DNA of 64,000 nucleotides from Escherichia coli. GTDB lineage: Bacteria; Pseudomonadota; Gammaproteobacteria; Enterobacterales; Enterobacteriaceae. A program made the position numbers and the translations under genes. The stretch lies in assembly GCF_002854065.1 (NCBI RefSeq), contig NZ_CP024147.1; one strand, given 5' to 3'. Positions 4,334 to 63,339 of this stretch are shown piece after piece (position 1 is the stretch's first letter; every line of letters starts with the position of its first letter). Under the pieces are notes generated by a model. The model was not told where the DNA came from, did no database searches, and was given only the letters and a program-made list of their open reading frames with translations.

Positions 4334-5334
4334 AAACAGAACGTATTCTCGGTGCTCTTTATGGGCAGGCGTTAGGGGATGCGATGGGGATGCCCTCCGA
4401 GCTTTGGCCACGCAGCCGCGTTAAAGCACACTTTGGCTGGATTGACCGTTTTCTGCCTGGACCAAAGGAGAATAACGCGGCCTGTTATTTTAACCGCGCC
4501 GAATTCACCGACGATACCTCGATGGCGCTGTGTCTGGCGGATGCGTTGCTGGAACGTAAAGGCAAGATCGATCCGGATCTGATTGGGCGTAATATCCTCG
4601 ACTGGGCGCTGCGTTTCGACGCCTTCAACAAAAACGTGCTAGGTCCGACCTCGAAGATTGCGCTTAACGCCATTCGCGACGGTAAACCCGTTGCTGAACT
4701 GGAAAACAACGGCGTAACCAACGGCGCAGCGATGCGCGTCTCGCCATTAGGTTGTTTGCTTCCGGCGCGCGATGTTGATTCTTTTATTGATGATGTGGCG
4801 CTGGCGTCGAGCCCGACCCATAAATCCGATCTGGCAGTTGCAGGTGCGGTAGTCATCGCATGGGCGATTTCTCGTGCTATTGACGGAGAAAGCTGGTCAG
4901 CGATTGTTGATTCACTGCCTTCAATTGCGCGACATGCCCAGCAAAAACGCACCACCACGTTCAGCGCCTCACTGGCGGCGCGGCTGGAGATTGCGCTGAA
5001 AATTGTGCGCAATGCCGACGGCACCGAATCCGCCAGCGAACAGCTTTACCAGGTCGTTGGCGCAGGTACCAGCACTATTGAGTCCGTTCCGTGCGCCATT
5101 GCGCTGGTTGAACTGGCACAAACCGACCCGAACCGTTGCGCCGTCCTCTGCGCTAACCTTGGCGGCGATACAGACACCATCGGTGCTATGGCGACGGCAA
5201 TCTGCGGCGCGTTGCATGGCATTAACGCTATCGATCCTGCGTTAAAGGCGGAGCTGGATGCGGTAAATCAGCTTGATTTCAACCGCTATGCCACAGCGCT
5301 GGCGAAATATCGTCAACAACGGGAGGCGGTATGA
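4330..5334 (+). CDS. yegU: ADP-ribosylglycohydrolase family protein
   Basis: 334-aa ORF with ADP-ribosylglycohydrolase-like features (LGDAMGMP... and DTDTIGAMA motifs); overlaps yegT stop by 4 nt. Confidence 0.8.
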   Translation: MKTERILGALYGQALGDAMGMPSELWPRSRVKAHFGWIDRFLPGPKENNAACYFNRAEFTDDTSMALCLADALLERKGKIDPDLIGRNILDWALRFDAFNKNVLGPTSKIALNAIRDGKPVAELENNGVTNGAAMRVSPLGCLLPARDVDSFIDDVALASSPTHKSDLAVAGAVVIAWAISRAIDGESWSAIVDSLPSIARHAQQKRTTTFSASLAARLEIALKIVRNADGTESASEQLYQVVGAGTSTIESVPCAIALVELAQTDPNRCAVLCANLGGDTDTIGAMATAICGALHGINAIDPALKAELDAVNQLDFNRYATALAKYRQQREAV

Positions 5335-9758: not shown

Positions 9759-10031
9759 TTATTTGATATATGAATCCAGCACCTTCAGAACGACATCCAG
9801 ATCTTCTTCACGTTTTAGCTCATCCCCCTGGTGAACGATGTGTTCCGTCAGATGACCTTTAATCACTTCCCGCATCAGACCGTTTACCGCGCCACGGATA
9901 GCAGCAATCTGTTGTAAAACTGCAGCGCATTCGTGCGGCTCGTCGAGCATTTTCTTGAGCGCCACGACCTGGCCCTGAATCTTACTGGCACGCGCTTTCA
10001 GTTTCTGTTTATCACGGATTGTATGAGACAT
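9759..10031 (-). CDS. rcnR: Ni/Co-responsive transcriptional repressor (CsoR/RcnR family)
   Basis: 90-aa [52 protein letters not shown]... recognised as RcnR. Confidence 0.9.
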
Positions 10032-11614: not shown

Positions 11615-11761
11615 TTAGTCGTATTTCACGTTGATTAATGCGGTTGCCTCCAGTGCGCCAGATTTAATTTTATTTGTATCGTAGACGTAGTAACTGGCTG
11701 TTATCGGAATTGAAACCGTTGTATCTGTAAGTTTTGACTTTGCCGCAATTTCTTTTAAATT
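11615..11761 (-). pseudogene. yehA: 3' remnant of a fimbrial-subunit-like gene (yehA position) truncated by IS1
   Basis: Minus-strand frame reads ...NLKEIAAKSKLTDTTVSIPITASYYVYDTNKIKSGALEATALINVKYD* and runs open into the IS1 end at 11764; gene identity inferred from position next to rcnB. Confidence 0.5.
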
Positions 11762-11778
11762 TGGGTAATGACTCCAAC

Positions 11779-12282
11779 TTATTGATAGTGTTTTATGTTC
11801 AGATAATGCCCGATGACTTTGTCATGCAGCTCCACCGATTTTGAGAACGACAGCGACTTCCGTCCCAGCCGTGCCAGGTGCTGCCTCAGATTCAGGTTAT
11901 GCCGCTCAATTCGCTGCGTATATCGCTTGCTGATTACGTGCAGCTTTCCCTTCAGGCGGGATTCATACAGCGGCCAGCCATCCGTCATCCATATCACCAC
12001 GTCAAAGGGTGACAGCAGGCTCATAAGACGCCCCAGCGTCGCCATAGTGCGTTCACCGAATACGTGCGCAACAACCGTCTTCCGGAGCCTGTCATACGCG
12101 TAAAACAGCCAGCGCTGGCGCGATTTAGCCCCGACGTATCCCCACTGTTCGTCCATTTCCGCGCAGACGATGACGTCACTGCCCGGCTGTATGCGCGAGG
12201 TTACCGACTGCGGCCTGAGTTTTTTAAATGGCGGAAAATCGTGTTGAGGCCAACGCCCATAATGCGGGCGGTTGCCCGGCAT
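11779..12282 (-). CDS. insB: IS1 InsB reading frame (transposase made as InsAB' by -1 frameshift)
   Basis: 167-aa ORF ...[54 protein letters not shown]... recognised as InsB; overlaps insA 3' end. Confidence 0.9.
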
Positions 12283-12476
12283 CCAACGCCATTCATGGCC
12301 ATATCAATGATTTTCTGGTGCGTACCGGGTTGAGAAGCGGTGTAAGTGAACTGCAGTTGCCATGTTTTACGGCAGTGAGAGCAGAGATAGCGCTGATGTC
12401 CGGCAGTGCTTTTGCCGTTACGCACCACCCCGTCAGTAGCTGAACAGGAGGGACAGCTGATAGAAACAGAAGCCAC
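12201..12476 (-). CDS. insA: IS1 InsA protein
   Basis: 91-aa [46 protein letters not shown]... recognised as InsA. Confidence 0.95.
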
Positions 12477-12600
12477 TGGAGCACCTCAAAAACACCATCA
12501 TACACTAAATCAGTAAGTTGGCAGCATCACCGACTTTGTAGAGTTTCGGACGAAGGTCCGCAGAATATTCGCAGTATTAAATAAGTGTTCATTAATGCGG

Positions 12601-12642
12601 CAAAAACTAATACACCGCATCAATGTAACATCTCTGCGGTGT
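12601..12642 (-). terminator. Candidate rho-independent terminator downstream of mrp
   Basis: Inverted repeat acaccgca...tgcggtgt; on the minus strand followed by a T-rich run (rc of caaaaactaat). Confidence 0.55.
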
Positions 12643-12672
12643 ATGAAGAATAACCAGAATGGTTAATAGGCG

Positions 12673-13782
12673 TTAGACCGCGCGGAAGGAAATCTCGCCT
12701 GGAATGACTTCACCCTGCCAGTAGAGCTGAGCTGCAACGCGGTCAGCCAGCTGGCGGTAGATAGCGGTAAATTCGCTCTCCGGACGGCTGATAACCGTTG
12801 GCGTGCCTTTATCGAGATCCTCACGTAAGGAGATGTGTAACGGCATCTGCCCCAGCAGCTGTGTGTGGTATTTTTCAGCCAGTTTCTCTGCACCACCGGT
12901 ACCGAAAATCGGTTCATGGTGACCACAGTTACTGCAAATATGCACACTCATGTTCTCGACAATACCAAGCACCGGAACCTCGACTTTCTCGAACATCACA
13001 ATGCCTTTTTTCGCATCGATCAACGCGATGTCCTGCGGGGTGGTGACCACGACTGCACCAGTTACTGGAATGTTTTGCGCCAGCGTCAATTGAATGTCAC
13101 CGGTGCCTGGCGGCATATCAAGCACCAGATAGTCGAGATCCGGCCACAAGGTTTCCTGCAACATCTGCATTAACGCCTTGCTCGCCATCGGTCCACGCCA
13201 CACCATCGCATTGTCGTCAGTGACCAGATAACCAATTGAATTGGTTGCCAGGCCATGAGACATAATCGGTGCCATATGGGTACCGTCCGGCGAAGTTGGA
13301 CGCTGATTTTCTGCGCCCAGCATGGTGGGAATTGATGGGCCGTAGATATCGGCGTCCAGAATGCCGACTTTCGCCCCTTCCGCCGCCAGTGCCAGCGCCA
13401 GGTTTACCGCCGTGGAGGATTTACCCACGCCGCCTTTACCGGAACTGACCGCAATGATGTTCTTCACACCATTAATACCCGGCTGATTCTTCACGCGTTT
13501 TAAGGTGGCGATATTGTGCGACAGTTTCCAGTCGATAGCTTTCGCCCCGGTGATACGCAGCAGTTCGGCGCTACATTGCTCTTTTAACTCTTCAAACGCG
13601 CTATGCCAGACGAATGGCATAACCAGTTCCACATGCAACGTGTCGTCCATCCAGGCGACATGGTGCAACGCTTTCAGCGTGGTGAGGTTATGCTTCAGGG
13701 TTGGGTGCTGAAAATTGGCCAGTGTCCCGGCGACCATTGCGCGCAAGGCTTCTGGTGATTTGGCCTGGGATTGTTCGTTCAT
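12673..13782 (-). CDS. mrp: Fe-S cluster carrier ATPase (Mrp/ApbC/NBP35 family)
   Basis: Translation MNEQSQAKSPEALRAMVAGTLANFQHPTLKHNL... with Walker A GKGGVGKSS; 369 aa after start trimming. Confidence 0.9.
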   Translation of the reverse strand: MNEQSQAKSPEALRAMVAGTLANFQHPTLKHNLTTLKALHHVAWMDDTLHVELVMPFVWHSAFEELKEQCSAELLRITGAKAIDWKLSHNIATLKRVKNQPGINGVKNIIAVSSGKGGVGKSSTAVNLALALAAEGAKVGILDADIYGPSIPTMLGAENQRPTSPDGTHMAPIMSHGLATNSIGYLVTDDNAMVWRGPMASKALMQMLQETLWPDLDYLVLDMPPGTGDIQLTLAQNIPVTGAVVVTTPQDIALIDAKKGIVMFEKVEVPVLGIVENMSVHICSNCGHHEPIFGTGGAEKLAEKYHTQLLGQMPLHISLREDLDKGTPTVISRPESEFTAIYRQLADRVAAQLYWQGEVIPGEISFRAV

Positions 13783-13913
13783 CCCGACTCCTTTTTTGTA
13801 TAGATAAACCATCAGCTGATAGTTTACCTGAAGAATATAGAGAAGTACTTACTTAACATTTTCCCATTTGGTACTATCTAACCCCTTTTCACTATTAAGA
13901 AGTAATGCCTACT

Positions 13914-15947
13914 ATGACTCAAGTCGCGAAGAAAATTCTGGTGACGTGCGCACTGCCGTACGCTAACGGCTCAATCCACCTCGGCCATATGCTGGAGCAC
14001 ATCCAGGCTGATGTCTGGGTCCGTTACCAGCGAATGCGCGGCCACGAGGTCAACTTCATCTGCGCCGACGATGCCCACGGTACACCGATCATGCTGAAAG
14101 CTCAGCAGCTTGGTATCACCCCGGAGCAGATGATTGGCGAAATGAGTCAGGAGCATCAGACTGATTTCGCAGGCTTTAACATCAGCTATGACAACTATCA
14201 CTCGACGCACAGCGAAGAGAACCGCCAGTTGTCAGAACTTATCTACTCTCGCCTGAAAGAGAACGGTTTTATTAAAAACCGCACCATCTCTCAGCTGTAC
14301 GATCCGGAAAAAGGCATGTTCCTGCCGGACCGTTTTGTGAAAGGCACCTGCCCGAAATGTAAATCCCCGGATCAATACGGCGATAACTGCGAAGTCTGCG
14401 GCGCGACCTACAGCCCGACTGAATTGATCGAGCCGAAATCGGTGGTTTCTGGCGCTACGCCGGTAATGCGTGATTCTGAACACTTCTTCTTTGATCTGCC
14501 CTCTTTCAGCGAAATGTTGCAGGCATGGACCCGCAGCGGTGCGTTGCAGGAGCAGGTGGCAAATAAAATGCAGGAGTGGTTTGAATCCGGCCTGCAACAG
14601 TGGGATATCTCCCGCGACGCGCCATACTTTGGTTTTGAAATTCCGAACGCGCCGGGCAAATATTTCTACGTCTGGCTGGACGCACCGATTGGCTACATGG
14701 GTTCTTTCAAGAATCTGTGCGACAAGCGCGGCGACAGCGTAAGCTTCGATGAATACTGGAAGAAAGACTCCACCGCCGAGCTGTACCACTTCATCGGTAA
14801 AGATATTGTTTACTTCCACAGCCTGTTCTGGCCTGCCATGCTGGAAGGCAGCAACTTCCGCAAGCCGACCAACCTGTTTGTTCATGGCTATGTGACGGTG
14901 AACGGCGCAAAGATGTCCAAGTCTCGCGGCACCTTTATTAAAGCCAGCACCTGGCTGAATCATTTTGACGCTGACAGCCTGCGTTACTACTACACTGCGA
15001 AACTCTCTTCGCGCATTGATGATATCGATCTCAACCTGGAGGATTTCGTTCAGCGTGTGAATGCCGATATCGTGAACAAAGTGGTTAACCTGGCCTCTCG
15101 TAATGCGGGCTTTATCAACAAGCGTTTTGACGGCGTGCTGGCAAGCGAACTGGCTGACCCGCAGTTGTACAAAACCTTCACTGATGCCGCTGAAGTGATT
15201 GGTGAAGCGTGGGAAAGCCGCGAATTTGGTAAAGCAGTGCGCGAAATCATGGCGCTGGCTGATCTGGCTAACCGCTATGTCGACGAGCAGGCTCCGTGGG
15301 TGGTGGCAAAACAGGAAGGCCGCGATGCCGACCTGCAGGCAATTTGCTCAATGGGCATAAACCTGTTCCGCGTGCTGATGACTTACCTGAAGCCGGTACT
15401 GCCGAAACTGACCGAGCGCGCAGAAGCATTCCTCAATACAGAACTGACCTGGGATGGTATCCAGCAACCGCTGCTGGGCCACAAAGTGAATCCGTTCAAA
15501 GCGCTGTATAACCGCATCGATATGAAGCAGGTTGAAGCACTGGTGGAAGCATCTAAAGAAGAAGTGAAAGCAGCTGCCGCGCCAGTTACTGGCCCACTGG
15601 CAGATGATCCGATTCAGGAAACCATCACCTTTGACGACTTCGCAAAAGTTGACCTGCGCGTGGCGCTGATCGAAAACGCAGAGTTTGTTGAAGGTTCTGA
15701 CAAACTGCTGCGCCTGACACTGGATCTCGGCGGTGAAAAACGCAATGTCTTCTCCGGTATTCGTTCTGCCTACCCGGATCCGCAGGCACTGATCGGGCGT
15801 CACACCATTATGGTGGCCAACCTGGCGCCACGTAAAATGCGCTTTGGTATCTCCGAAGGCATGGTAATGGCTGCTGGTCCTGGCGGGAAAGATATCTTCC
15901 TGTTAAGCCCGGATGCTGGTGCTAAACCAGGCCATCAGGTGAAATAA
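13914..15947 (+). CDS. metG: Methionyl-tRNA synthetase
   Basis: Translation [38 protein letters not shown]... with HIGH and KMSKS motifs; 677 aa after start trimming. Confidence 0.95.
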
Positions 15948-15956
15948 TCCCCCTTC

Positions 15957-15986
15957 AAGGCGCTGCATCGACAGCGCCTTTTCTTT
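15957..15986 (+). terminator. Rho-independent terminator downstream of metG
   Basis: aaggcgctgcatcgacagcgcctt hairpin followed by ttctttat. Confidence 0.65.
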
Positions 15987-16034
15987 ATAAATTCCTAAAG
16001 TTGTTTTCTTGCGATTTTGGGTAATGACTCCAAC

Positions 16035-16538
16035 TTATTGATAGTGTTTTATGTTCAGATAATGCCCGATGACTTTGTCATGCAGCTCCACCGATTTTGA
16101 GAACGACAGCGACTTCCGTCCCAGCCGTGCCAGGTGCTGCCTCAGATTCAGGTTATGCCGCTCAATTCGCTGCGTATATCGCTTGCTGATTACGTGCAGC
16201 TTTCCCTTCAGGCGGGATTCATACAGCGGCCAGCCATCCGTCATCCATATCACCACGTCAAAGGGTGACAGCAGGCTCATAAGACGCCCCAGCGTCGCCA
16301 TAGTGCGTTCACCGAATACGTGCGCAACAACCGTCTTCCGGAGACTGTCATACGCGTAAAACAGCCAGCGCTGGCGCGATTTAGCCCCGACGTATCCCCA
16401 CTGTTCGTCCATTTCCGCGCAGACGATGACGTCACTGCCCGGCTGTATGCGCGAGGTTACCGACTGCGGCCTGAGTTTTTTAAATGGCGGAAAATCGTGT
16501 TGAGGCCAACGCCCATAATGCGGGCGGTTGCCCGGCAT
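16035..16538 (-). CDS. insB: IS1 InsB reading frame (copy 2)
   Basis: 167-aa ORF identical to copy 1 except one residue (YDSLRK vs YDRLRK). Confidence 0.9.
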
Positions 16539-16732
16539 CCAACGCCATTCATGGCCATATCAATGATTTTCTGGTGCGTACCGGGTTGAGAAGCGGTGTA
16601 AGTGAACTGCAGTTGCCATGTTTTACGGCAGTGAGAGCAGAGATAGCGCTGATGTCCGGCAGTGCTTTTGCCGTTACGCACCACCCCGTCAGTAGCTGAA
16701 CAGGAGGGACAGCTGATAGAAACAGAAGCCAC
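16457..16732 (-). CDS. insA: IS1 InsA protein (copy 2)
   Basis: 91-aa ORF identical in translation to copy 1 InsA. Confidence 0.95.
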
Positions 16733-16787
16733 TGGAGCACCTCAAAAACACCATCATACACTAAATCAGTAAGTTGGCAGCATCACC

Positions 16788-17282
16788 CTGCTGACGTTAT
16801 CCCTTCCGGCATCTGCCTGTTCTCCTTTTGCCGTTGAACGCATGGCGGCGCTTTTGCAACAAACAGACGACCCCGTGAGTCTGGTTTCTGGCTTTGTCAG
16901 CTTTGTAGAGGGGCAATTGACACTGGAACCACGGGTGATGATGACAAAAACCCGTGCCTGGGCGCTGGACGCGGAAACTGCGCCTGTGGCACCGCTACCT
17001 TCTGCCAGCGTTTTGCCTGTGCCGTCTACCGCTCATCAGTTGCTGATGCGCTGCCAGGCGTTACTTATTCAACTGCTCCATAACGGCTGGCGCTATCAGG
17101 AACAGAGCGCTATTAGTCAGGCAGAGTTGCTGGCGAATGACCTCACCGCGGTGGGTTTTTATCGGCTGGCACATGTGTTGGCACAATTTCGTAATACAGA
17201 AAGCGAGGCACGGGTAGAAGCAATGAATAACGGTGTTTTGCTTTGCGAACAATTATTCCCCATGCTTCAGCAACAAGGATGA
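16788..17282 (+). pseudogene. yehQ: 3' fragment of the gene upstream of yehR (yehQ position), truncated at its 5' side by IS1
   Basis: Plus-strand frame is open from the first base after the IS1 end (16788) through ORF 16842..17282; no start context or promoter; identity inferred from position. Confidence 0.45.
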
Positions 17283-19145: not shown

Positions 19146-20827
19146 GCCTCGTCCCTCCATGGTAGTCGTAACGTTATTCGGGTGTAACTATCAGGCTCAC
19201 AGGCGACGCTTGTTCCATAGTCATCGCCAAACCGTTCACGTAAACGCTTATCCACCAGATTCATCCCCAGCCCACTGGCATTGGTTACCGGTTGATACAA
19301 ACCGGCATTGTCTTCGATCTCCAGCATCAAATGTTGCCCCTCACGTCGGGCGCTGATTGCCACTCGCCCTGTATCCAGCAGTTGTGATGTCCCATGTTTA
19401 ATGGCGTTTTCCACTATCGGTTGCAGGGTAAACGCGGGCAATTGCTGCTGGGATAATTCTTGCGGAATAGCAATGTTGACCTGCAACCGCGACTGGAAGC
19501 GCGCCTTTTCAATTTGCAGATAAGCGTTCACATGTTCAATTTCGTCGGCGAGAGTAACAAACTCCGAAGGCCGCTTTAAGTTTTTGCGGAAAAAAGTGGA
19601 AAGATACTGCACCAGCTGGCTGGCCTGTTCGCTGTCGCGGCGGATCACCGCTTTAATGGTGTTAAGCGCATTAAACAAAAAATGAGGATTCACCTGGGCG
19701 TGAAGCAGTTTGATTTCTGACTGGGTGAGCATCGCTTTTTGCCGCTCATATTGCCCGGCAAGAATCTGCGCCGAAAGCAGTTGCGCAATCCCCTCGCCCA
19801 GCGTGCGGTTTATTGAACTGAATAAACGGTTTTTGGCTTCATACAATTTGATGGTGCCCATCACCCGCTGATTTTCACCACGCAACGGAATTACCAGCGT
19901 CGACCCCAGTTTGCATTGCGGATGCAAAGAGCAACGATAAGGTACTTCGTTGCCATCAGCGTAGACCACTTCACCGGTTTCAATCGCTTTTAAGGTGTAA
20001 GTCGAAGAAATCGGTTTGCCGGGTAAATGGTGGTCGTCACCAATTCCAGTAAAGGCCAGCAATTTCTCTCGATCGGTAATCGCGACTGCACCAATATCCA
20101 GCTCCTGATACAGCACCTGTGCCACTTTCATGCTGTTCACTTCGTTAAACCCCTGGCGCAAAATGCCTTCCGTCGAGGCTGCCACTTTCAGCGCAGTGGC
20201 AGAAAAAGCCGAAGTGTATTTTTCAAACATCGCGCGTTTATCGAGCAATATACGCATAAACAGCGCCGCGCCGACGGTATTGGTGACCATCATTGGCGCA
20301 GCAATATTACTCACCAGACGCACCGCATCTTCATAAGGTCGGGCGATCGCCAGGATGATCAACATTTGCACCATTTCAGCGACGAACGTGACGGCACCGG
20401 CGGTAATGGGGTTAAAGACTTTATCAGTGCGCCCGCGACGGATCAGGATGCTGTGTACCAGGCCGCCGAGCAATCCTTCAACGATGGTCGAGATCATGCA
20501 ACTTAGCGCGGTCATGCCCCCCATCGAATATCGATGTAACCCGCCGGTCAGGCCAACCAGCCCACCGACGACCGGACCGCCGAGTAAGCCGCCCATTACC
20601 GCGCCTATCGCACGGGTATTGGCAATAGAATCGTCAATGTGCAACCCAAACCAGGTGCCCATGATGCAGAAGATGGAAAAGACGATGTAGCAGAGAAATT
20701 TATGCGGCAGACGAACCGTGACCTGCATTAACGGTATGAATAATGGCGTTTTACTCATTAACCACGCAATGACTAAAAAAACGCACATCTGCTGAAGCAG
20801 CAGCAACACCAGATTAAAATCGTACAT
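19142..20827 (-). CDS. btsS: LytS-family sensor histidine kinase (pyruvate-sensing BtsS/YehU)
   Basis: Translation [30 protein letters not shown]... with 5TM-LytS N-terminus, GAF and His-kinase domains; 561 aa; 4-nt overlap with btsR. Confidence 0.9.
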
Positions 20828-25915: not shown

Positions 25916-28213
25916 TTACAGCAACTCAAACTCGCCTTTCTTAACGCGTGCGGAATCAGTGCCGATAAAGACATTGAACTTGCCAGGCTCGGCGTCATAT
26001 TTCATCTGTTGATTCCAGAACTTCAGCGCCTCGATATCAATCGGGAAGCTGACGGTCTGAGTTTCGCCCGGCTTCAGCGTGATTTTCTCAAAGCCTTTAA
26101 GCTGCTTCACCGGACGACTCATGGAAGCCGTCACATCCTGCAAATACATCTGAATCACCGTGGCCCCCTCGCGCTTACCGGTGTTCGTCACCTGCACGCT
26201 GGCGGTCACTTTGCCGTCACGCTTCATGGTCGGCGCAGAAAGTTTCACATCAGAGACGGTGAAAGTGGTATAGCTCAGCCCATAGCCGAACGGATAAAGC
26301 GCCCCGTTAGCTTCATCAAAATAACGCGAAGTGTATTTGTTCGGCTTATCGGCATTATACGGACGCCCGGTATTCAGATGGCTGTAGTACACCGGGATCT
26401 GCCCGACAGAACGCGGAAAGGACATCGGCAGCTTGCCGGACGGGTTGTAATCGCCAAACAATACATCGGCAATCGCATTACCGCCTTCAGTCCCGGCAAA
26501 CCAGGTTTCCAGAATCGCATCAGCTTGCTGATCTTCTTTCACCAGCGCCAGCGGACGCCCGTTCATCAGCACCAGCACCAGCGGTTTGCCGGTGGCTTTC
26601 AGGGCGGCAATCAAATCACGCTGGCTTTGCGGAATAGTGATATCGGTACGGCTGGAGGCTTCGTGCGCCATCCCCTGGGCTTCACCGACCACAGCCACCA
26701 CCACATCAGACTGTTTCGCCGTCTGCACCGCTTCATCAATCATCTCTTGCGGCGAGCGCGGATCGACTTTGACCGCTTCTTCATACTGATTCAGGAAATC
26801 GATAATGCCTTTGTCACTGGTAACGTTCGCCCCTTTGGCATACAGCACTTTACCGTTTTCACCGACGGCATTTTTAATCCCTGTTAGCACAGTAACAGAT
26901 TGATCGGCGACACCGGCTGCGGACCAGCTGCCCATCACGTCACGTTTACTGTCCGCCAGTGGCCCAACCACCGCAATGGTGGCCGATTTTTTCAGCGGTA
27001 ACGTTTCGAGACGGTTTTTCAGCAACACCAGGCTTTCACGCGCCACTTCACGCGCTTCTTTACGGTGCAGGCGGCTTTCGGCATTGGTATCCATCGGGTC
27101 AGACTCTTTCGGACCGAGATGGCTGTATGGGTCGTTAAACAACCCCATATCATATTTAACGTTCAGTACATGGCGGGCAGCATCGTCCAGCTCTGCCATC
27201 GTCACTTTGCCGGATTTGATCAACCCAGGCAGATACTTCGAGTAGTACTCGTCGCTCATGCTCATGTTGATTCCGGATTTCAGCGCCACGCGCACCGCAT
27301 CTTCCGGGTCTGCCGCCGTGCCATGTTTAATCAGTTCTTTGATTGCACCATGATCGGAAACGGTGATGCCTTTAAAGCCCCACTGGTCGCGCAGAACATC
27401 TTTCAGCAGCCAGGAGTCGGAGGTGGCTGGCGTGCCGTTGAGTGAGTTCAGCGCCACCATTACCGCACCGCTGCCTGCGTCCAGCCCCGCTTTGTACGGC
27501 GGCATATAATCATTAAACAGGCGCTGCGGACTCATATCGACGGTGTTGTACTCTTTACCGCCTTCTACCGCACCGTATGCGGCAAAGTGTTTGACGCTGG
27601 TCATCACCGAGTAGCGATCTGCCGGGCTTTTACCCTGCATCGCTTCCACCATGGTTTTACCCATTATTGAGGTGAGATACGTATCTTCGCCAAAACCTTC
27701 GGAAGCACGTCCCCAGCGCGGATCGCGCGAGACATCGACCATCGGTGCCCAGGTCATATTCAGGCCATCATCTGCCGCTTCATAAGCAGAGACACGTCCG
27801 ACCGTTTTCACTGCATCGAGGTTAAAAGACGAGGCCAGACTGAGGCTAATCGGGAACACCGTGCGCTGACCGTGCAGCACGTCGTAAGCAAAGAAAAGAG
27901 GAATTTTCAGGCGGCTTAATTCCATCACCTGATCCTGCATGGCGCGGATATCCTGACGGGTTACGGTGTTGAAAATCGCCCCAACCTGACCGTCTTTGAT
28001 CATCTCGCGGATCGCCTCTTTCGGGTTATCCGGGCCGACGCTGATTAAGCGCAGCTGACCAATTTTCTCATCAACTGTCATTTTCTTAAGCAGTTCGGTG
28101 ACGAACGCATCCCGCGCTTCAGGCGTTAATGGATGGTTACCGAATAAATCATCCGCCAGTGCTGGCTGCAGGGCCAGACTCACCGCGATTCCTACTGAAC
28201 ATAGCCATTTCAT
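25916..28213 (-). CDS. bglX: Periplasmic beta-glucosidase (GH3)
   Basis: Translation MKWLCSVGIAVSLALQPALADDLFGNHPLTPEAR...; 765 aa after trimming the 789-aa ORF. Confidence 0.9.
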   Translation of the reverse strand: MKWLCSVGIAVSLALQPALADDLFGNHPLTPEARDAFVTELLKKMTVDEKIGQLRLISVGPDNPKEAIREMIKDGQVGAIFNTVTRQDIRAMQDQVMELSRLKIPLFFAYDVLHGQRTVFPISLSLASSFNLDAVKTVGRVSAYEAADDGLNMTWAPMVDVSRDPRWGRASEGFGEDTYLTSIMGKTMVEAMQGKSPADRYSVMTSVKHFAAYGAVEGGKEYNTVDMSPQRLFNDYMPPYKAGLDAGSGAVMVALNSLNGTPATSDSWLLKDVLRDQWGFKGITVSDHGAIKELIKHGTAADPEDAVRVALKSGINMSMSDEYYSKYLPGLIKSGKVTMAELDDAARHVLNVKYDMGLFNDPYSHLGPKESDPMDTNAESRLHRKEAREVARESLVLLKNRLETLPLKKSATIAVVGPLADSKRDVMGSWSAAGVADQSVTVLTGIKNAVGENGKVLYAKGANVTSDKGIIDFLNQYEEAVKVDPRSPQEMIDEAVQTAKQSDVVVAVVGEAQGMAHEASSRTDITIPQSQRDLIAALKATGKPLVLVLMNGRPLALVKEDQQADAILETWFAGTEGGNAIADVLFGDYNPSGKLPMSFPRSVGQIPVYYSHLNTGRPYNADKPNKYTSRYFDEANGALYPFGYGLSYTTFTVSDVKLSAPTMKRDGKVTASVQVTNTGKREGATVIQMYLQDVTASMSRPVKQLKGFEKITLKPGETQTVSFPIDIEALKFWNQQMKYDAEPGKFNVFIGTDSARVKKGEFELL

Positions 28214-58901: not shown

Positions 58902-60152
58902 CTACGCTAAACCAATAAAGAACCCGGCAATGGTGGCACTCATCAGATTAGAAAGTGTCGCCGCCGCCAGCGCGCGTAAACCAAGCTGGGCGATTTCCGG
59001 CGCACGGTGTGGCGCAACCGCAGAAAACGCCCCCACCACCACCCCGATAGAACCAAAGTTAGCGAAACCGCACAACGCGAAGGAAATAATCGCCACGGTT
59101 TTTGCATCGAGAGTGCCAGCTGTTTGCAGATAGGGTGAGAAATTGAGATAAGCGACAAATTCATTTATTGCCAGTTTCTGTCCAATCAAACTCCCGGCAA
59201 GATTCGCATCAGTCCAGTCAACACCCATTACCCACGCCAGTGGGGCCAGCAGGTAACCTAAAATGGACTCCAGCGAGGCATGTTCAAAACCAAACCAGCC
59301 GCCAACGCCGCCGATAATACCGTTAATTAACGCAATGATGGCAACAAATGCCATCACCACTGTTGCCACACCCGCAGCGATTTTCAGCCCGGTCATCGCC
59401 CCTGTCGCGGCGGCTTCAATAATGCTTTTTGGCGGTGTTTCGGTGAAAGAGAGGTTATTAAAAGAAACCTGCGAAGATTCCGTAGCCGGGCTTAGCATGC
59501 GGGCAAACAAGATCCCGCCGGGGATCGCCATTAACGATGCCGCCAGCAAATATTCCACAGGCACGCCCAGTGCGGCGTAACCAATCATCGTCGAACCAGC
59601 AATTGAGGCCATGCCACTACAAATCGCTGTAAATAACTCATTGCGATTCAGCCGATCGATAAAGGGTTTGACGATTGCCGGAATTTCGTTTTGCCCGAGG
59701 AAAATGGTAGTGACCGCGACGAATGACTCGATCTTGCTGATATTTAACGCTTTCTGGAAGATACCGCCGAGAATGCGAATTAAGATCCCCATCACACCGA
59801 TGTAATAGAGAATACTCACCAGCGCGGTGACGAAGATAATTGCCGGTAACACCCTGAAACCAAAGATAAATCCTGCGCCATCAAACAGCGTGTCCATTTT
59901 CGGCCCGACCAGCGAACCGAAGATAAATGCGCTACCTGCATCGCTGTACGCCATCACTTTATGCACGCCAAAAGCGACTTTTTCAGCGACCCAACGCCCT
60001 GGCGGTAACCAAAGCATAATCCCGCCAATCACAACCTGTAACACTAACGCCGCGCCAACGGTACGCAGGCTGATCTTCTTCTTGTTTACTGACAGTAAAA
60101 ACGCAATCGTCAGCAATACCACCATTCCCAGAACACTTCTCATGACATCCAT
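58902..60152 (-). CDS. nupX: NupC-family concentrative nucleoside transporter
   Basis: 416-aa polytopic ORF MDVMRSVLGMVVLLTIAFLLSVNKKKISLRTVGAAL...; paralogue of psuT in this window. Confidence 0.9.
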   Translation of the reverse strand: MDVMRSVLGMVVLLTIAFLLSVNKKKISLRTVGAALVLQVVIGGIMLWLPPGRWVAEKVAFGVHKVMAYSDAGSAFIFGSLVGPKMDTLFDGAGFIFGFRVLPAIIFVTALVSILYYIGVMGILIRILGGIFQKALNISKIESFVAVTTIFLGQNEIPAIVKPFIDRLNRNELFTAICSGMASIAGSTMIGYAALGVPVEYLLAASLMAIPGGILFARMLSPATESSQVSFNNLSFTETPPKSIIEAAATGAMTGLKIAAGVATVVMAFVAIIALINGIIGGVGGWFGFEHASLESILGYLLAPLAWVMGVDWTDANLAGSLIGQKLAINEFVAYLNFSPYLQTAGTLDAKTVAIISFALCGFANFGSIGVVVGAFSAVAPHRAPEIAQLGLRALAAATLSNLMSATIAGFFIGLA

Positions 60153-62088: not shown

Positions 62089-63339
62089 TCAAGCTAAACC
62101 AATAAAGAACCCGGCAATGGTCGCGCTCATCAGGTTGGAAAGCGTTGCTGCTGCCAGCGCCCGTAAACCAAGCTGGGCGATTTCCGGAGCACGTTTTGGC
62201 GAAATAGCCGAAAATGCCCCAACGACAACACCGATAGAACCAAAGTTAGCAAAACCACAAAGCGCAAAGGAGATAATCGCAATGGTTTTCACTTCCAGCG
62301 TGCCGCCCGTTTGCAGGTATGGGGAGAAACTCAGGTAAGCGACGAATTCGTTAATCGCCAGTTTCTGCCCAATCAGGCTACCCGCAAGGTTGGCATCACT
62401 CCAGTCCACACCCATGATCCACGCCAGCGGTGCCAGCACATAGCCAAAAATACTTTCCAGAGAAGCATTGGCGAAGCCAAACCAGCCGCCAATTCCGCCG
62501 ATAATGCCATTGATCAGCGCAATAATTGCCACAAATGCCATTACCACCGTCGCCACACCAGCGGCGATTTTCAGCCCGGTCATCGCACCGCTCGCCGCCG
62601 CTTCGATAAAGCTTTTTGGCGGCGTTTCGCTGAACGACAGATTTTCAAATGTGACCTGCGAAGGCTCGGTTGCCGGGCTAAGAATACGTGCAAACAAAAT
62701 CCCGCCAGGGATCGCCATCAGCGATGCCGCTAACAGGTAGTCAATTGGTACGCCCATTCCGGCATAACCAATCATCATCGAACCCGCAATGGACGCCATC
62801 CCGCTACAAATTGCGGTAAACAACTCGTTGCGATTCATGCGATCGATAAACGGTTTAACGATCGCCGGGATCTCATTTTGCCCGAGGAAAATAGTGGTAA
62901 CCGCAACAAAAGATTCGATTTTGCTGATGTTGAGGGCTTTCTGGAAAATGCTACCAAGGATGCGAATCAGCAGCCCCATCACGCCAATGTAGTACAGCAG
63001 ACTAATGAGCGCAGTGACGAAGATAATCGCCGGGAGTACGCGAAAGGCGAAGATAAAACCCGCACCGTCAAAGAGGACATCCATTTTCGGCCCGACCAGC
63101 GAACCAAAAATGAAGGCGCTACCGGCATCACTGTAAGACATCACTTTATGAACGCCTAATGCCGCCTGTTCTACAGCCCACTTTCCCGGCGGAAAATAGA
63201 GCATGATGCCACCAATAGCAATTTGCAGCAGTAGTGCGGCTCCAACCGTACGCAAACTGATGCTCTTTTTATTCACTGACAACAGAAATGCTATTGCCAG
63301 TAACACCACCATCCCCACAACACTTCTCATTATGTCCAT
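62089..63339 (-). CDS. psuT: NupC-family pseudouridine/nucleoside transporter
   Basis: 416-aa polytopic ORF MDIMRSVVGMVVLLAIAFLLSVNKKSISLRTVGAALLLQIA...; immediately upstream of psuG. Confidence 0.9.
   Translation of the reverse strand: MDIMRSVVGMVVLLAIAFLLSVNKKSISLRTVGAALLLQIAIGGIMLYFPPGKWAVEQAALGVHKVMSYSDAGSAFIFGSLVGPKMDVLFDGAGFIFAFRVLPAIIFVTALISLLYYIGVMGLLIRILGSIFQKALNISKIESFVAVTTIFLGQNEIPAIVKPFIDRMNRNELFTAICSGMASIAGSMMIGYAGMGVPIDYLLAASLMAIPGGILFARILSPATEPSQVTFENLSFSETPPKSFIEAAASGAMTGLKIAAGVATVVMAFVAIIALINGIIGGIGGWFGFANASLESIFGYVLAPLAWIMGVDWSDANLAGSLIGQKLAINEFVAYLSFSPYLQTGGTLEVKTIAIISFALCGFANFGSIGVVVGAFSAISPKRAPEIAQLGLRALAAATLSNLMSATIAGFFIGLA

Follow-up and report, generated by a model that had tools for sequence, protein, structure and literature searches.

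IS1 is an element of about 768 bp whose terminal inverted repeats, about 23 bp long, are imperfect (GGTGATGCTGCCAACTTACTGAT and GGTAATGACTCCAACTTATTGAT). Its two frames, insA and insB', are joined by a programmed -1 frameshift at a run of A residues. Simple insertion of IS1 is marked by a direct target duplication of 9 bp (8-10 bp). The duplication marks the insertion event and not the element: its absence counts against simple insertion, not against IS1 identity. The classical description of IS1 adjacent deletion concerns the gal region of E. coli K-12, beside an IS1. Direct IS1 copies also flank other DNA, as in Tn9 (IS1-cat-IS1) and in the IS1-flanked argF segment of K-12, which we take to be the one sometimes called Tn2901. 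In a long-term evolution experiment, none of the IS-associated deletions had a duplication, and their origin was traced to a prior insertion and a subsequent adjacent deletion (14 of 14 cases were resolved in this way; PMC11708052). When IS1 was activated experimentally, an IS was associated with 358 of 363 deletions, and all deletions spared the essential genes (PMC12065110).

Here we describe an E. coli locus at which two IS1 copies bracket apbC (mrp) and metG and the genes normally found on both sides are gone. The window, that is, the whole stretch of DNA analysed, is 64 kb long. An earlier note on this DNA had described the two copies as direct repeats with intact ends, and this is borne out: each is 768 bp long, and the two point the same way. 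Copy 1 occupies positions 11764-12531 on the minus strand, is of the IS1B/C type and matches NF033558 (IS1 family transposase); its insA is at 12201-12476 and its insB at 11779-12282. Copy 2 occupies 16020-16787, also on the minus strand. Each has its GGTAATGAC (IRR) end at left and its GGTGATGCTGCC (IRL) end, in reverse complement, at right; the minus strand encodes the transposase. insA, insB and the TTTAAAAAAC frameshift motif (IS position 304) are intact in both copies; InsA is 91 aa, the insB frame is 167 aa, and NF033558 matches both. Identical copies in two related genomes, CUWW06 and 100416, carry a programmed frameshift in the RefSeq annotation. By length, canonical ends and frameshifted insA/insB', both copies are members of the IS1 family. 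They differ at one position from IS1B/IS1C of K-12, and copy 1 differs at 8 positions from IS1A. The single substitution between the copies, which the earlier note had also seen, is at IS position 325 (C at 12088, A at 16344) and replaces Arg by Ser at InsB residue 65 (R65S) in copy 2. The A at 16344 is private to copy 2 of the window, CUWW06 and 100416 having C there. It coincides with the IS1A variant.

The bracketed genes are intact. apbC (12673-13782, minus strand, 369 aa) matches NF008669 over its full length (1-369 of 369, 777.8 bits), and its stop codon is 141 nt from the end of copy 1. metG, encoding methionine-tRNA ligase (13914-15947, plus strand, 677 aa), matches NF001100 with 1018.9 bits (cutoff 587), and its stop codon is 72 nt from the start of copy 2. 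A terminator-like hairpin of metG (15957-15980, plus strand), consisting of a nine-pair stem followed by a T-run, is intact inside the unit, and copy 2 is inserted 39 nt past its stem. The unit IS1-apbC-metG-IS1 measures 5,024 bp.

On each outer side lies a truncated reading frame, as the earlier note had pointed out. To the left is the 3' remnant of yehA, a fimbrial adhesin gene (11615-11763, minus strand), which consists of the last 48 codons plus stop and is cut at the IS1 end. It is collinear with 4381-4529 of K-12 L005, and the 48 codons (11618-11761), when translated, match NF011788 at positions 297-344 of 344. To the right is the 3' remnant of yehQ, a SWIM zinc-finger protein gene (16788-17282, plus strand), comprising the last 495 nt after an in-frame cut behind nt 1506; it is 100% collinear with ES6 L007 from position 20001. 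In CUWW06 and 100416 the yehA remnant is annotated as a partial fimbrial protein and the yehQ remnant as partial. The first 41 nt after the copy 2 junction have 13 mismatches to K-12. A further rearrangement was considered and rejected, the stretch being a yehQ allele that is 100% common to ES6, 6EVA, G3/10 and ECONIH4.

The loss of yeh genes noted earlier could be sized by alignment to intact loci. The left deletion removes 5,389 bp (most of yehA and all of yehB-E), and the right one about 14.2 kb (yehF/H through the first 1,506 nt of yehQ), so that yehB-E and yehF/H-yehP are missing from the window relative to K-12. At copy 1 the left flank stops at 4529 and the right flank restarts at 9919 of K-12 L005; the copy 2 junctions are at 13406 and 27607 of K-12, or 5802 and 20001 of ES6 L007. 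All four junctions are exact to the base with zero extra bases (against K-12, NT1F34, a7 and ES6), and each deletion endpoint is exactly an IS1 end, with the IS retained. The lost genes are near-universal in complete E. coli genomes, yehB being found in 97% and yehM in 98%; the two queries are negative in about 2-3% of genomes.

The IS1 copies lack the mark of simple insertion. Copy 1 is flanked by TTAAATTTG on the left and GACTTTGTA on the right, and copy 2 by GCGATTTTG and CTGCTGACG; an 8- or 9-bp target duplication was sought at each copy and none was found, nor do the flanks match across copies, in agreement with the earlier note. As a positive control, strain L73 has a simple IS1 insertion in yehA, and there the same script recovered a 9-bp duplication, GCCATTATC. 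Judged by these flanks, neither copy is a simple insertion. A caution is that absence of a target duplication is common for chromosomal IS1 copies: IS1A, IS1B and IS1C of K-12 likewise have none, and every deletion-adjacent copy examined is without one. Two short similarities were dismissed as coincidence. TTTG, common to the left of both copies, is not placed like a duplication; the 7-mer GACTTTG, 23 nt left of copy 1 and recurring at its right flank, is also in the wrong position, and K-12 has GACTTCG.

Among 5,426 complete E. coli genomes, all four junctions occur together in only two, CUWW06 (Thailand) and 100416 (Gambia). These are clone-mates of the window strain, which differs from each at about 3 x 10^-4 per site. 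The arrangement is inherited in three isolates of a natural clone from at least two continents, and could be used as a marker for this clone. An exact-match metagenome scan for the junction between IS1 and the position 72 bp after metG gave 0 matches. IS copies are a classic source of mis-assembly, and the base that differs between the copies, being the IS1A variant, could be polishing cross-talk. A mis-join at IS1 repeats that simulates the deletions has nevertheless a negligible probability, given identical junctions in the window and in two independent complete assemblies from different continents, and the absence of the deleted genes from the 64-kb window. The E. coli B or K-12 background that the earlier note had implied is wrong. 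The strain is neither and belongs to the CUWW06/100416 clone; E. coli B is rejected as the source since it carries IS1 inside yehE with different flanks. The closest relative outside the clone is SY3626, 99.9% identical over 24 kb downstream; its yeh region is another allele mosaic (94.7-98.8% identical) with different IS elements and is uninformative on ancestry.

The locus probably arose by two separate deletions associated with IS1, to the left and to the right of apbC-metG, each by insertion followed by transposase-mediated adjacent deletion. In the first step, an IS1B-type copy would insert at an AT-rich site and generate a 9-bp duplication; copy 1 would first have entered yehA in its 3' part, and copy 2 the DNA 72 bp past the metG stop. 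In the second step, IS1 transposase would link the element's IRL end to another site, on the same chromosome and further to the right. This intramolecular transposition (adjacent deletion) would remove the intervening DNA and one copy of the duplication, leaving IS1 with one old and one new flank. IS1-apbC-metG-IS1 would be the by-product of two deletions, not a transposon that arrived as a unit. We infer in what order the events took place, which junction came first, and that transposase acted and not RecA. The IRR-side sites are 33% and 37% GC and the IRL-side sites 45% and 53%; the AT-richness of the former is a weak argument, since targets of intramolecular transposition show this preference too. 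The expected precursor, a simple insertion flanked by a 9-bp duplication, was found at none of the four sites in the 5,426 genomes, and the proposed first step is thus not observed; nor did these genomes include a close relative in an intermediate state.

The earlier note had read the missing duplications as the signature of adjacent deletion rather than simple insertion. The deletion edges, exactly at IS1 ends, fit this reading; the missing duplication alone, however, cannot separate adjacent deletion from IS1 x IS1 recombination, the products being identical. Each present element might come from RecA-dependent homologous recombination between two direct IS1 copies. The parents would be duplication-bearing insertions at the yehA site and downstream of apbC for copy 1, and at the site 72 bp after metG and in yehQ for copy 2; a crossover would delete the interval and leave one hybrid IS1, with the left flank of one parent and the right flank of the other. 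This yields exactly the structure seen, the lineage is rich in IS1 (at least 40 IS1 matches per chromosome), several copies are often found together in the yeh region, as in strain a7, and absent duplications are a recognised result of IS x IS recombination (PMC11708052). It requires, however, four insertions instead of two and the correct relative orientation, and none of the four duplication-bearing junctions it predicts is found in the 5,426 genomes. We regard it as possible but rather unlikely.

For copy 1, the data favour neither mechanism; only the evidence on copy 2 leans to adjacent deletion. In strain GDSC2227PM, the metG-side IS1 junction is the same to the base (72 bp after metG) and the IS1 has the same orientation, but its IRL end adjoins yehL, whereas that of copy 2 adjoins yehQ. 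The strain is unrelated (its apbC-metG is only 98.3% identical to that of the window), and its IS1 is of the IS1A type, 7-8 positions off the copy in the window. Adjacent deletion is favoured for copy 2 because GDSC2227PM shares the metG-side junction but not the far endpoint: adjacent deletion is expected to keep one junction and to vary the other. Recombination would need, in GDSC2227PM, another coincident pair of insertions sharing the metG-side base. One fixed junction with differing far ends is found for copy 2 only, as a parallel across unrelated strains and not as a series within a lineage, and the parallel could equally be read as the site 72 bp after metG being preferred for a deletion end, not for the original insertion. 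A one-step alternative is that IS1 entered a break while an unrelated deletion was being resolved, and the duplication was never made. Such break capture was raised for IS5 and IS481 (PMC11708052) and would account for the lack of a duplication-bearing precursor. It is, however, undocumented for IS1, all 14 cases of the long-term experiment were insertions followed by adjacent deletion (PMC11708052), and it leaves unexplained the same junction base and the same IS1 end in two unrelated strains; we consider it very improbable.

IS1 copies without duplications, together with yeh deletions, are also present in a7, NT1F34, 6EVA, SY3626, BLR(DE3) and EC21Z-063, and in eleven genomes an IS1 lies no more than about 620 nt past metG. 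Loss of yeh genes beside metG is a recurrent form of IS1 erosion, and it halts before essential metG. Several IS1 copies in the yeh region of one strain are frequent; a7 has three within 10 kb. About 27 genomes gave a 155-nt match to an IS1 downstream of gss, 36 nt of it in the flank; this was rejected as chance similarity of AT-rich flanks, the ungapped identity of the two flanks being only 17 of 36 bases. It is conceivable, if doubtful, that the site 72 bp after metG is a true IS1 hot spot hit independently by different isoforms, with the essential gene as a hard stop that channels convergent yeh loss; the sets lost would then be the near-universal Yeh fimbrial operon and the yehF-Q (WGR/DUF4132-MoxR-VWA-SWIM) cluster. 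If this were true, the unit would be protected from collapse, collapse being lethal, and could act as a cassette by which an essential gene is mobilised, perhaps the way in which apbC-metG came onto pECOH89-type plasmids.

The composite-transposon-like look of native core DNA, remarked on earlier, is real, but IS1-apbC-metG-IS1 only resembles a composite transposon. That an active transposon or an imported segment inserted as a unit and replaced resident genes is suggested by the Tn9-like layout of two direct IS1 copies with intact ends around a cargo, by the ability of IS1 pairs to mobilise native DNA (a 41-kb yohK-yehB segment in the laboratory; PMC12065110), and by the presence of an apbC-metG pair on about 200 plasmids. 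The idea is effectively refuted. apbC-metG lies at its native locus and in its native orientation between rcnB and yehR, and the sequences just outside the unit are what is left of genes usually found further out. No target duplication surrounds the whole unit, the outer flanks TTAAATTTG and CTGCTGACG being unmatched. Identity of the plasmid-borne pairs is only 80-92%, and a search for IS1 ends within 6 kb of them found none. Nothing points to apbC-metG having been amplified or mobilised: the unit is single-copy in both complete clone-mates, and its junctions occur at this locus only.

metG is known to be essential in K-12. Recombination between the direct IS1 copies would delete it, and further deletion from copy 2 toward metG would have 72 bp to spare; the arrangement would be stable in the clone because of this lethal collapse and this margin. 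On this view IS1 erodes expendable DNA to the left and right of an essential gene and leaves a direct-repeat IS1 pair that is unable to collapse, the essential gene setting the limit of IS-driven genome reduction. The mechanism is not new. The locus is a clean natural example of known IS1 behaviour, an ordinary and well-understood form of genome erosion.

As in the IS1 adjacent deletions described earlier (gal; PMC11708052), the IS is kept, the deletion starts at the IS end and the duplication is lost; one junction is fixed and the far endpoint varies, as between the window and GDSC2227PM. Unlike in those cases, we infer the mechanism with no precursor observed, and two events bracket a retained gene pair. 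Tn9 similarly has two full-length, potentially active direct IS1 copies, here flanking a 3.5-kb cargo, but the cargo of the window is native core DNA at its native site, and the unit has no surrounding duplication, second copy or sign of movement. The IS1B-argF-IS1C segment of K-12 also consists of chromosomal metabolic genes between direct IS1 copies that both lack 9-bp duplications. It lies, however, in the CP4-6 prophage region and is dispensable, and deletion by IS1 x IS1 recombination is viable there for this reason, whereas the cargo of the window includes essential metG. Laboratory genome reduction by IS1 used an engineered hyperactive element, in contrast to the natural clone described here; in both, deletions begin at IS1 ends and stop before essential genes, and IS1 pairs around native DNA arise spontaneously in the laboratory as well, including around the yehB-yohK interval (PMC12065110).

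Two 768-bp copies of IS1 lie in the same orientation at 11764-12531 (copy 1) and 16020-16787 (copy 2) and flank apbC (mrp) and metG. Each has GGTAATGAC as its left end and the reverse complement of GGTGATGCTGCC as its right end. In each, the insA and insB frames are complete and fit NF033558, a model of the IS1 transposase, and the frameshift motif TTTAAAAAAC is present. Both are of the IS1B/C type (one difference from K-12 IS1B and IS1C, eight from IS1A). Coordinates and alignment bear out the earlier note that a single substitution separates the copies: C at 12088 versus A at 16344, the latter giving an R65S change in InsB. Copy 1 is flanked by the 9-mers TTAAATTTG and GACTTTGTA, and copy 2 by GCGATTTTG and CTGCTGACG. 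A search for a 9-bp target duplication at both copies found none: as had been claimed, no flank equals another, within or across copies. The missing duplication is not a failure of the method, since the same script detects the 9-bp duplication in strain L73, where yehA carries a simple IS1 insertion. The genes between the copies are intact: apbC encodes 369 aa (NF008669, 777.8 bits) and metG 677 aa (NF001100, 1018.9 bits). The IS1 ends lie 141 nt from the apbC stop and 72 nt from the metG stop, and a terminator-like hairpin of metG (15957-15980) is kept.

The outer flanks have lost the neighboring yeh genes, as the earlier note stated with reference to K-12, and alignment now places both intervals. 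On the left, identity with the K-12 MG1655 locus (L005) stops at 4529 within yehA and picks up again at 9919, between yehE and apbC, a loss of 5,389 bp that takes most of yehA and all of yehB, C, D, and E. At copy 2, it stops at 13406 and resumes at 27607, so that ~14.2 kb is gone: yehF, yehH, yehI, yehK, yehL, yehM, yehP, and yehQ up to nt 1,506. Against strain ES6, where the locus is intact, this deletion is 14,198 bp (L007 5803-20000), in frame. The truncated ORFs noticed at the outer side of each copy are the last 48 codons and stop of yehA (positions 297-344 of 344 in NF011788) and the final 495 nt of yehQ. Each of the four junctions is exact, without filler bases. Immediately to the right of copy 2, a 41-nt stretch (16788-16828) has 13 mismatches to K-12 and NT1F34, followed by ~98% identity. 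ES6 is identical to the window over this stretch, and the same allele occurs in the intact yehQ of 6EVA, G3/10, and ECONIH4, which rules out an extra rearrangement; the stretch is a recombination-mosaic yehQ allele.

The four junctions occur together in just two of 5,426 complete E. coli genomes: CUWW06, from wastewater in Thailand, and 100416, from human stool in Gambia. The window differs from them at ~3 x 10^-4 per site (7 differences in 22 kb; 12 and one indel in 40.5 kb). Given this divergence and the shared junctions, the window is therefore a third isolate of one clone, and its structure is inherited and does not stem from misassembly. It comes from neither K-12, where the yeh genes lost here are present, nor E. 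coli B, which has a different arrangement with an IS1 within yehE. IS position 325 of copy 2 is C in both relatives, so the clone's ancestor had two identical copies. The private A of the window at 16344 is the IS1A base at that position; copy 2 of 100416 has a private G to A change at position 468, also to the IS1A base. These two changes point to gene conversion over short tracts, with IS1A-type copies elsewhere in the genome as donors, or to cross-talk between repeats during polishing; random mutation is less likely as the source of both. Farther along, mdtQ (~34463) has an open frame in the window and a 1-nt deletion in CUWW06, where it is annotated as frameshifted; the deletion is either genuine or a homopolymer error of that assembly. 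A repeat finder also returned an 82%-identical direct repeat (58906-59205 and 62093-62392), which corresponds to the nucleoside transporter paralogues nupX and psuT.

Every deletion endpoint is an IS1 end, which ties the deletions to IS1. The earlier note took the lost duplications as the signature of adjacent deletion. The deletions do abut IS1 ends; homologous recombination between two inserted IS1 copies would, however, leave the same product, and the two routes are inseparable from the final sequence. We consider transposase-mediated adjacent deletion the probable route. IS1 would have undergone simple insertion at the yehA site and 72 nt past the metG stop, and intramolecular transposition from the IRL (right) end of each copy would then have deleted rightward. 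The sites on the IRR (left) side are AT-rich (33% and 37% GC), compared with 45% and 53% GC on the IRL side, a contrast that fits this order of events weakly.

A further comparison comes from GDSC2227PM, an unrelated strain whose apbC-metG segment is 98.3% identical to that of the window and which keeps yehA-E. Its IS1 (L008 9040/9041) joins the same base past metG as in the window (16019/16020), and is oriented alike, and its far end lies at yehL; this copy is of the IS1A type and differs from the window IS1 at 7-8 positions. The site 72 nt past metG thus looks like one that IS1 has used repeatedly. A fixed junction with varying far endpoints is the pattern of adjacent deletion, and for copy 2 the evidence leans toward that route. 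Two insertions followed by recombination, which predict the same final product, are less likely. A one-step break-capture event has been proposed for other IS families (PMC11708052) and is very improbable here. None of the 5,426 complete genomes has a duplication-bearing precursor at any of the four predicted junctions. The closest genome that does not belong to the clone is SY3626, whose yeh region is another mosaic of alleles and says nothing on ancestry.

IS1 copies without duplications also occur at yeh deletions in a7 (three copies), NT1F34, 6EVA, SY3626, BLR(DE3), and EC21Z-063. In the last (L018 2769-3536), an IS1 that is ~8% divergent (64 differences) links a site ~220 nt past metG to the final 84 nt of yehQ, so that the entire yehF-Q cluster has been lost convergently; four more genomes match over the same span, by sequence match only. 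IS1 lies within ~620 nt downstream of metG in 11 genomes, and within ~620 nt of the other two junction sites in some 76-85. Nearly all other E. coli genomes keep the genes lost here (5,330 of 5,426 genomes match a yehM query and 5,282 a yehB query). The yehF-Q cluster encodes MoxR-type ATPase, VWA, and SWIM proteins and has been struck repeatedly by IS1, IS4, IS5, and IS3. Its WGR/DUF4132 paralogues between metG and yehK number five gene segments in 6EVA (L006 6133-21120), versus two to three in K-12 (L005 13475-20912) and ES6. Published work agrees. Of the 14 IS-associated deletions in the long-term evolution experiment, none had duplications, and each arose by insertion followed by adjacent deletion (PMC11708052). 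When IS1 was activated experimentally, IS elements were associated with 358 of 363 deletions, no essential gene was removed, simple insertions made up only 366 of the 902 insertions, and IS1 pairs moved native DNA such as a 41-kb yohK-yehB segment (PMC12065110). IS1 erosion at this locus is recurrent and ordinary; the instance is new, the process well known.

About 200 non-mobilizable plasmids of E. coli also carry an apbC-metG pair, arranged divergently as at 12532-16019 and 80-92% identical to the window in nucleotide sequence; among the best 15 of these ~200, those at 92% are ~110 kb in size. On pECOH89 (NC_023916.1, L010 5994-9285), which we take to be an SSU5/pHCM2-like phage-plasmid, the pair is surrounded by hypothetical genes of phage-like character, and no IS1 end lies within 6 kb. 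Our search found no paper linking these plasmids to metG. The plasmid-borne pair is mildly notable, as is the junction that GDSC2227PM shares with the window to the base, although that strain is unrelated and carries another IS1 isoform.

The earlier note called the IS1-apbC-metG-IS1 unit composite-transposon-like with native cargo. The outline, which it shares with Tn9, and the native core DNA hold. That the unit is a transposon that moved is contradicted by its native locus and orientation, its unmatched outer flanks, and its single copy in the clone-mates (apbC-metG is single-copy in both CUWW06 and 100416). Amplification or mobilization is possible in principle, but these genomes show no sign of either. 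As metG is essential in K-12, recombination between the two copies would be lethal; that three isolates from different places have kept the pair fits this constraint. The locus thus illustrates IS1-associated deletion limited by an essential gene. In K-12 MG1655 itself, none of IS1A, IS1B, and IS1C has a 9-bp duplication (L014 797-1564; L015 2164-2931 and 13635-14402), and IS1B and IS1C form a native direct-repeat pair around argF, much as the pair described here does around apbC-metG.
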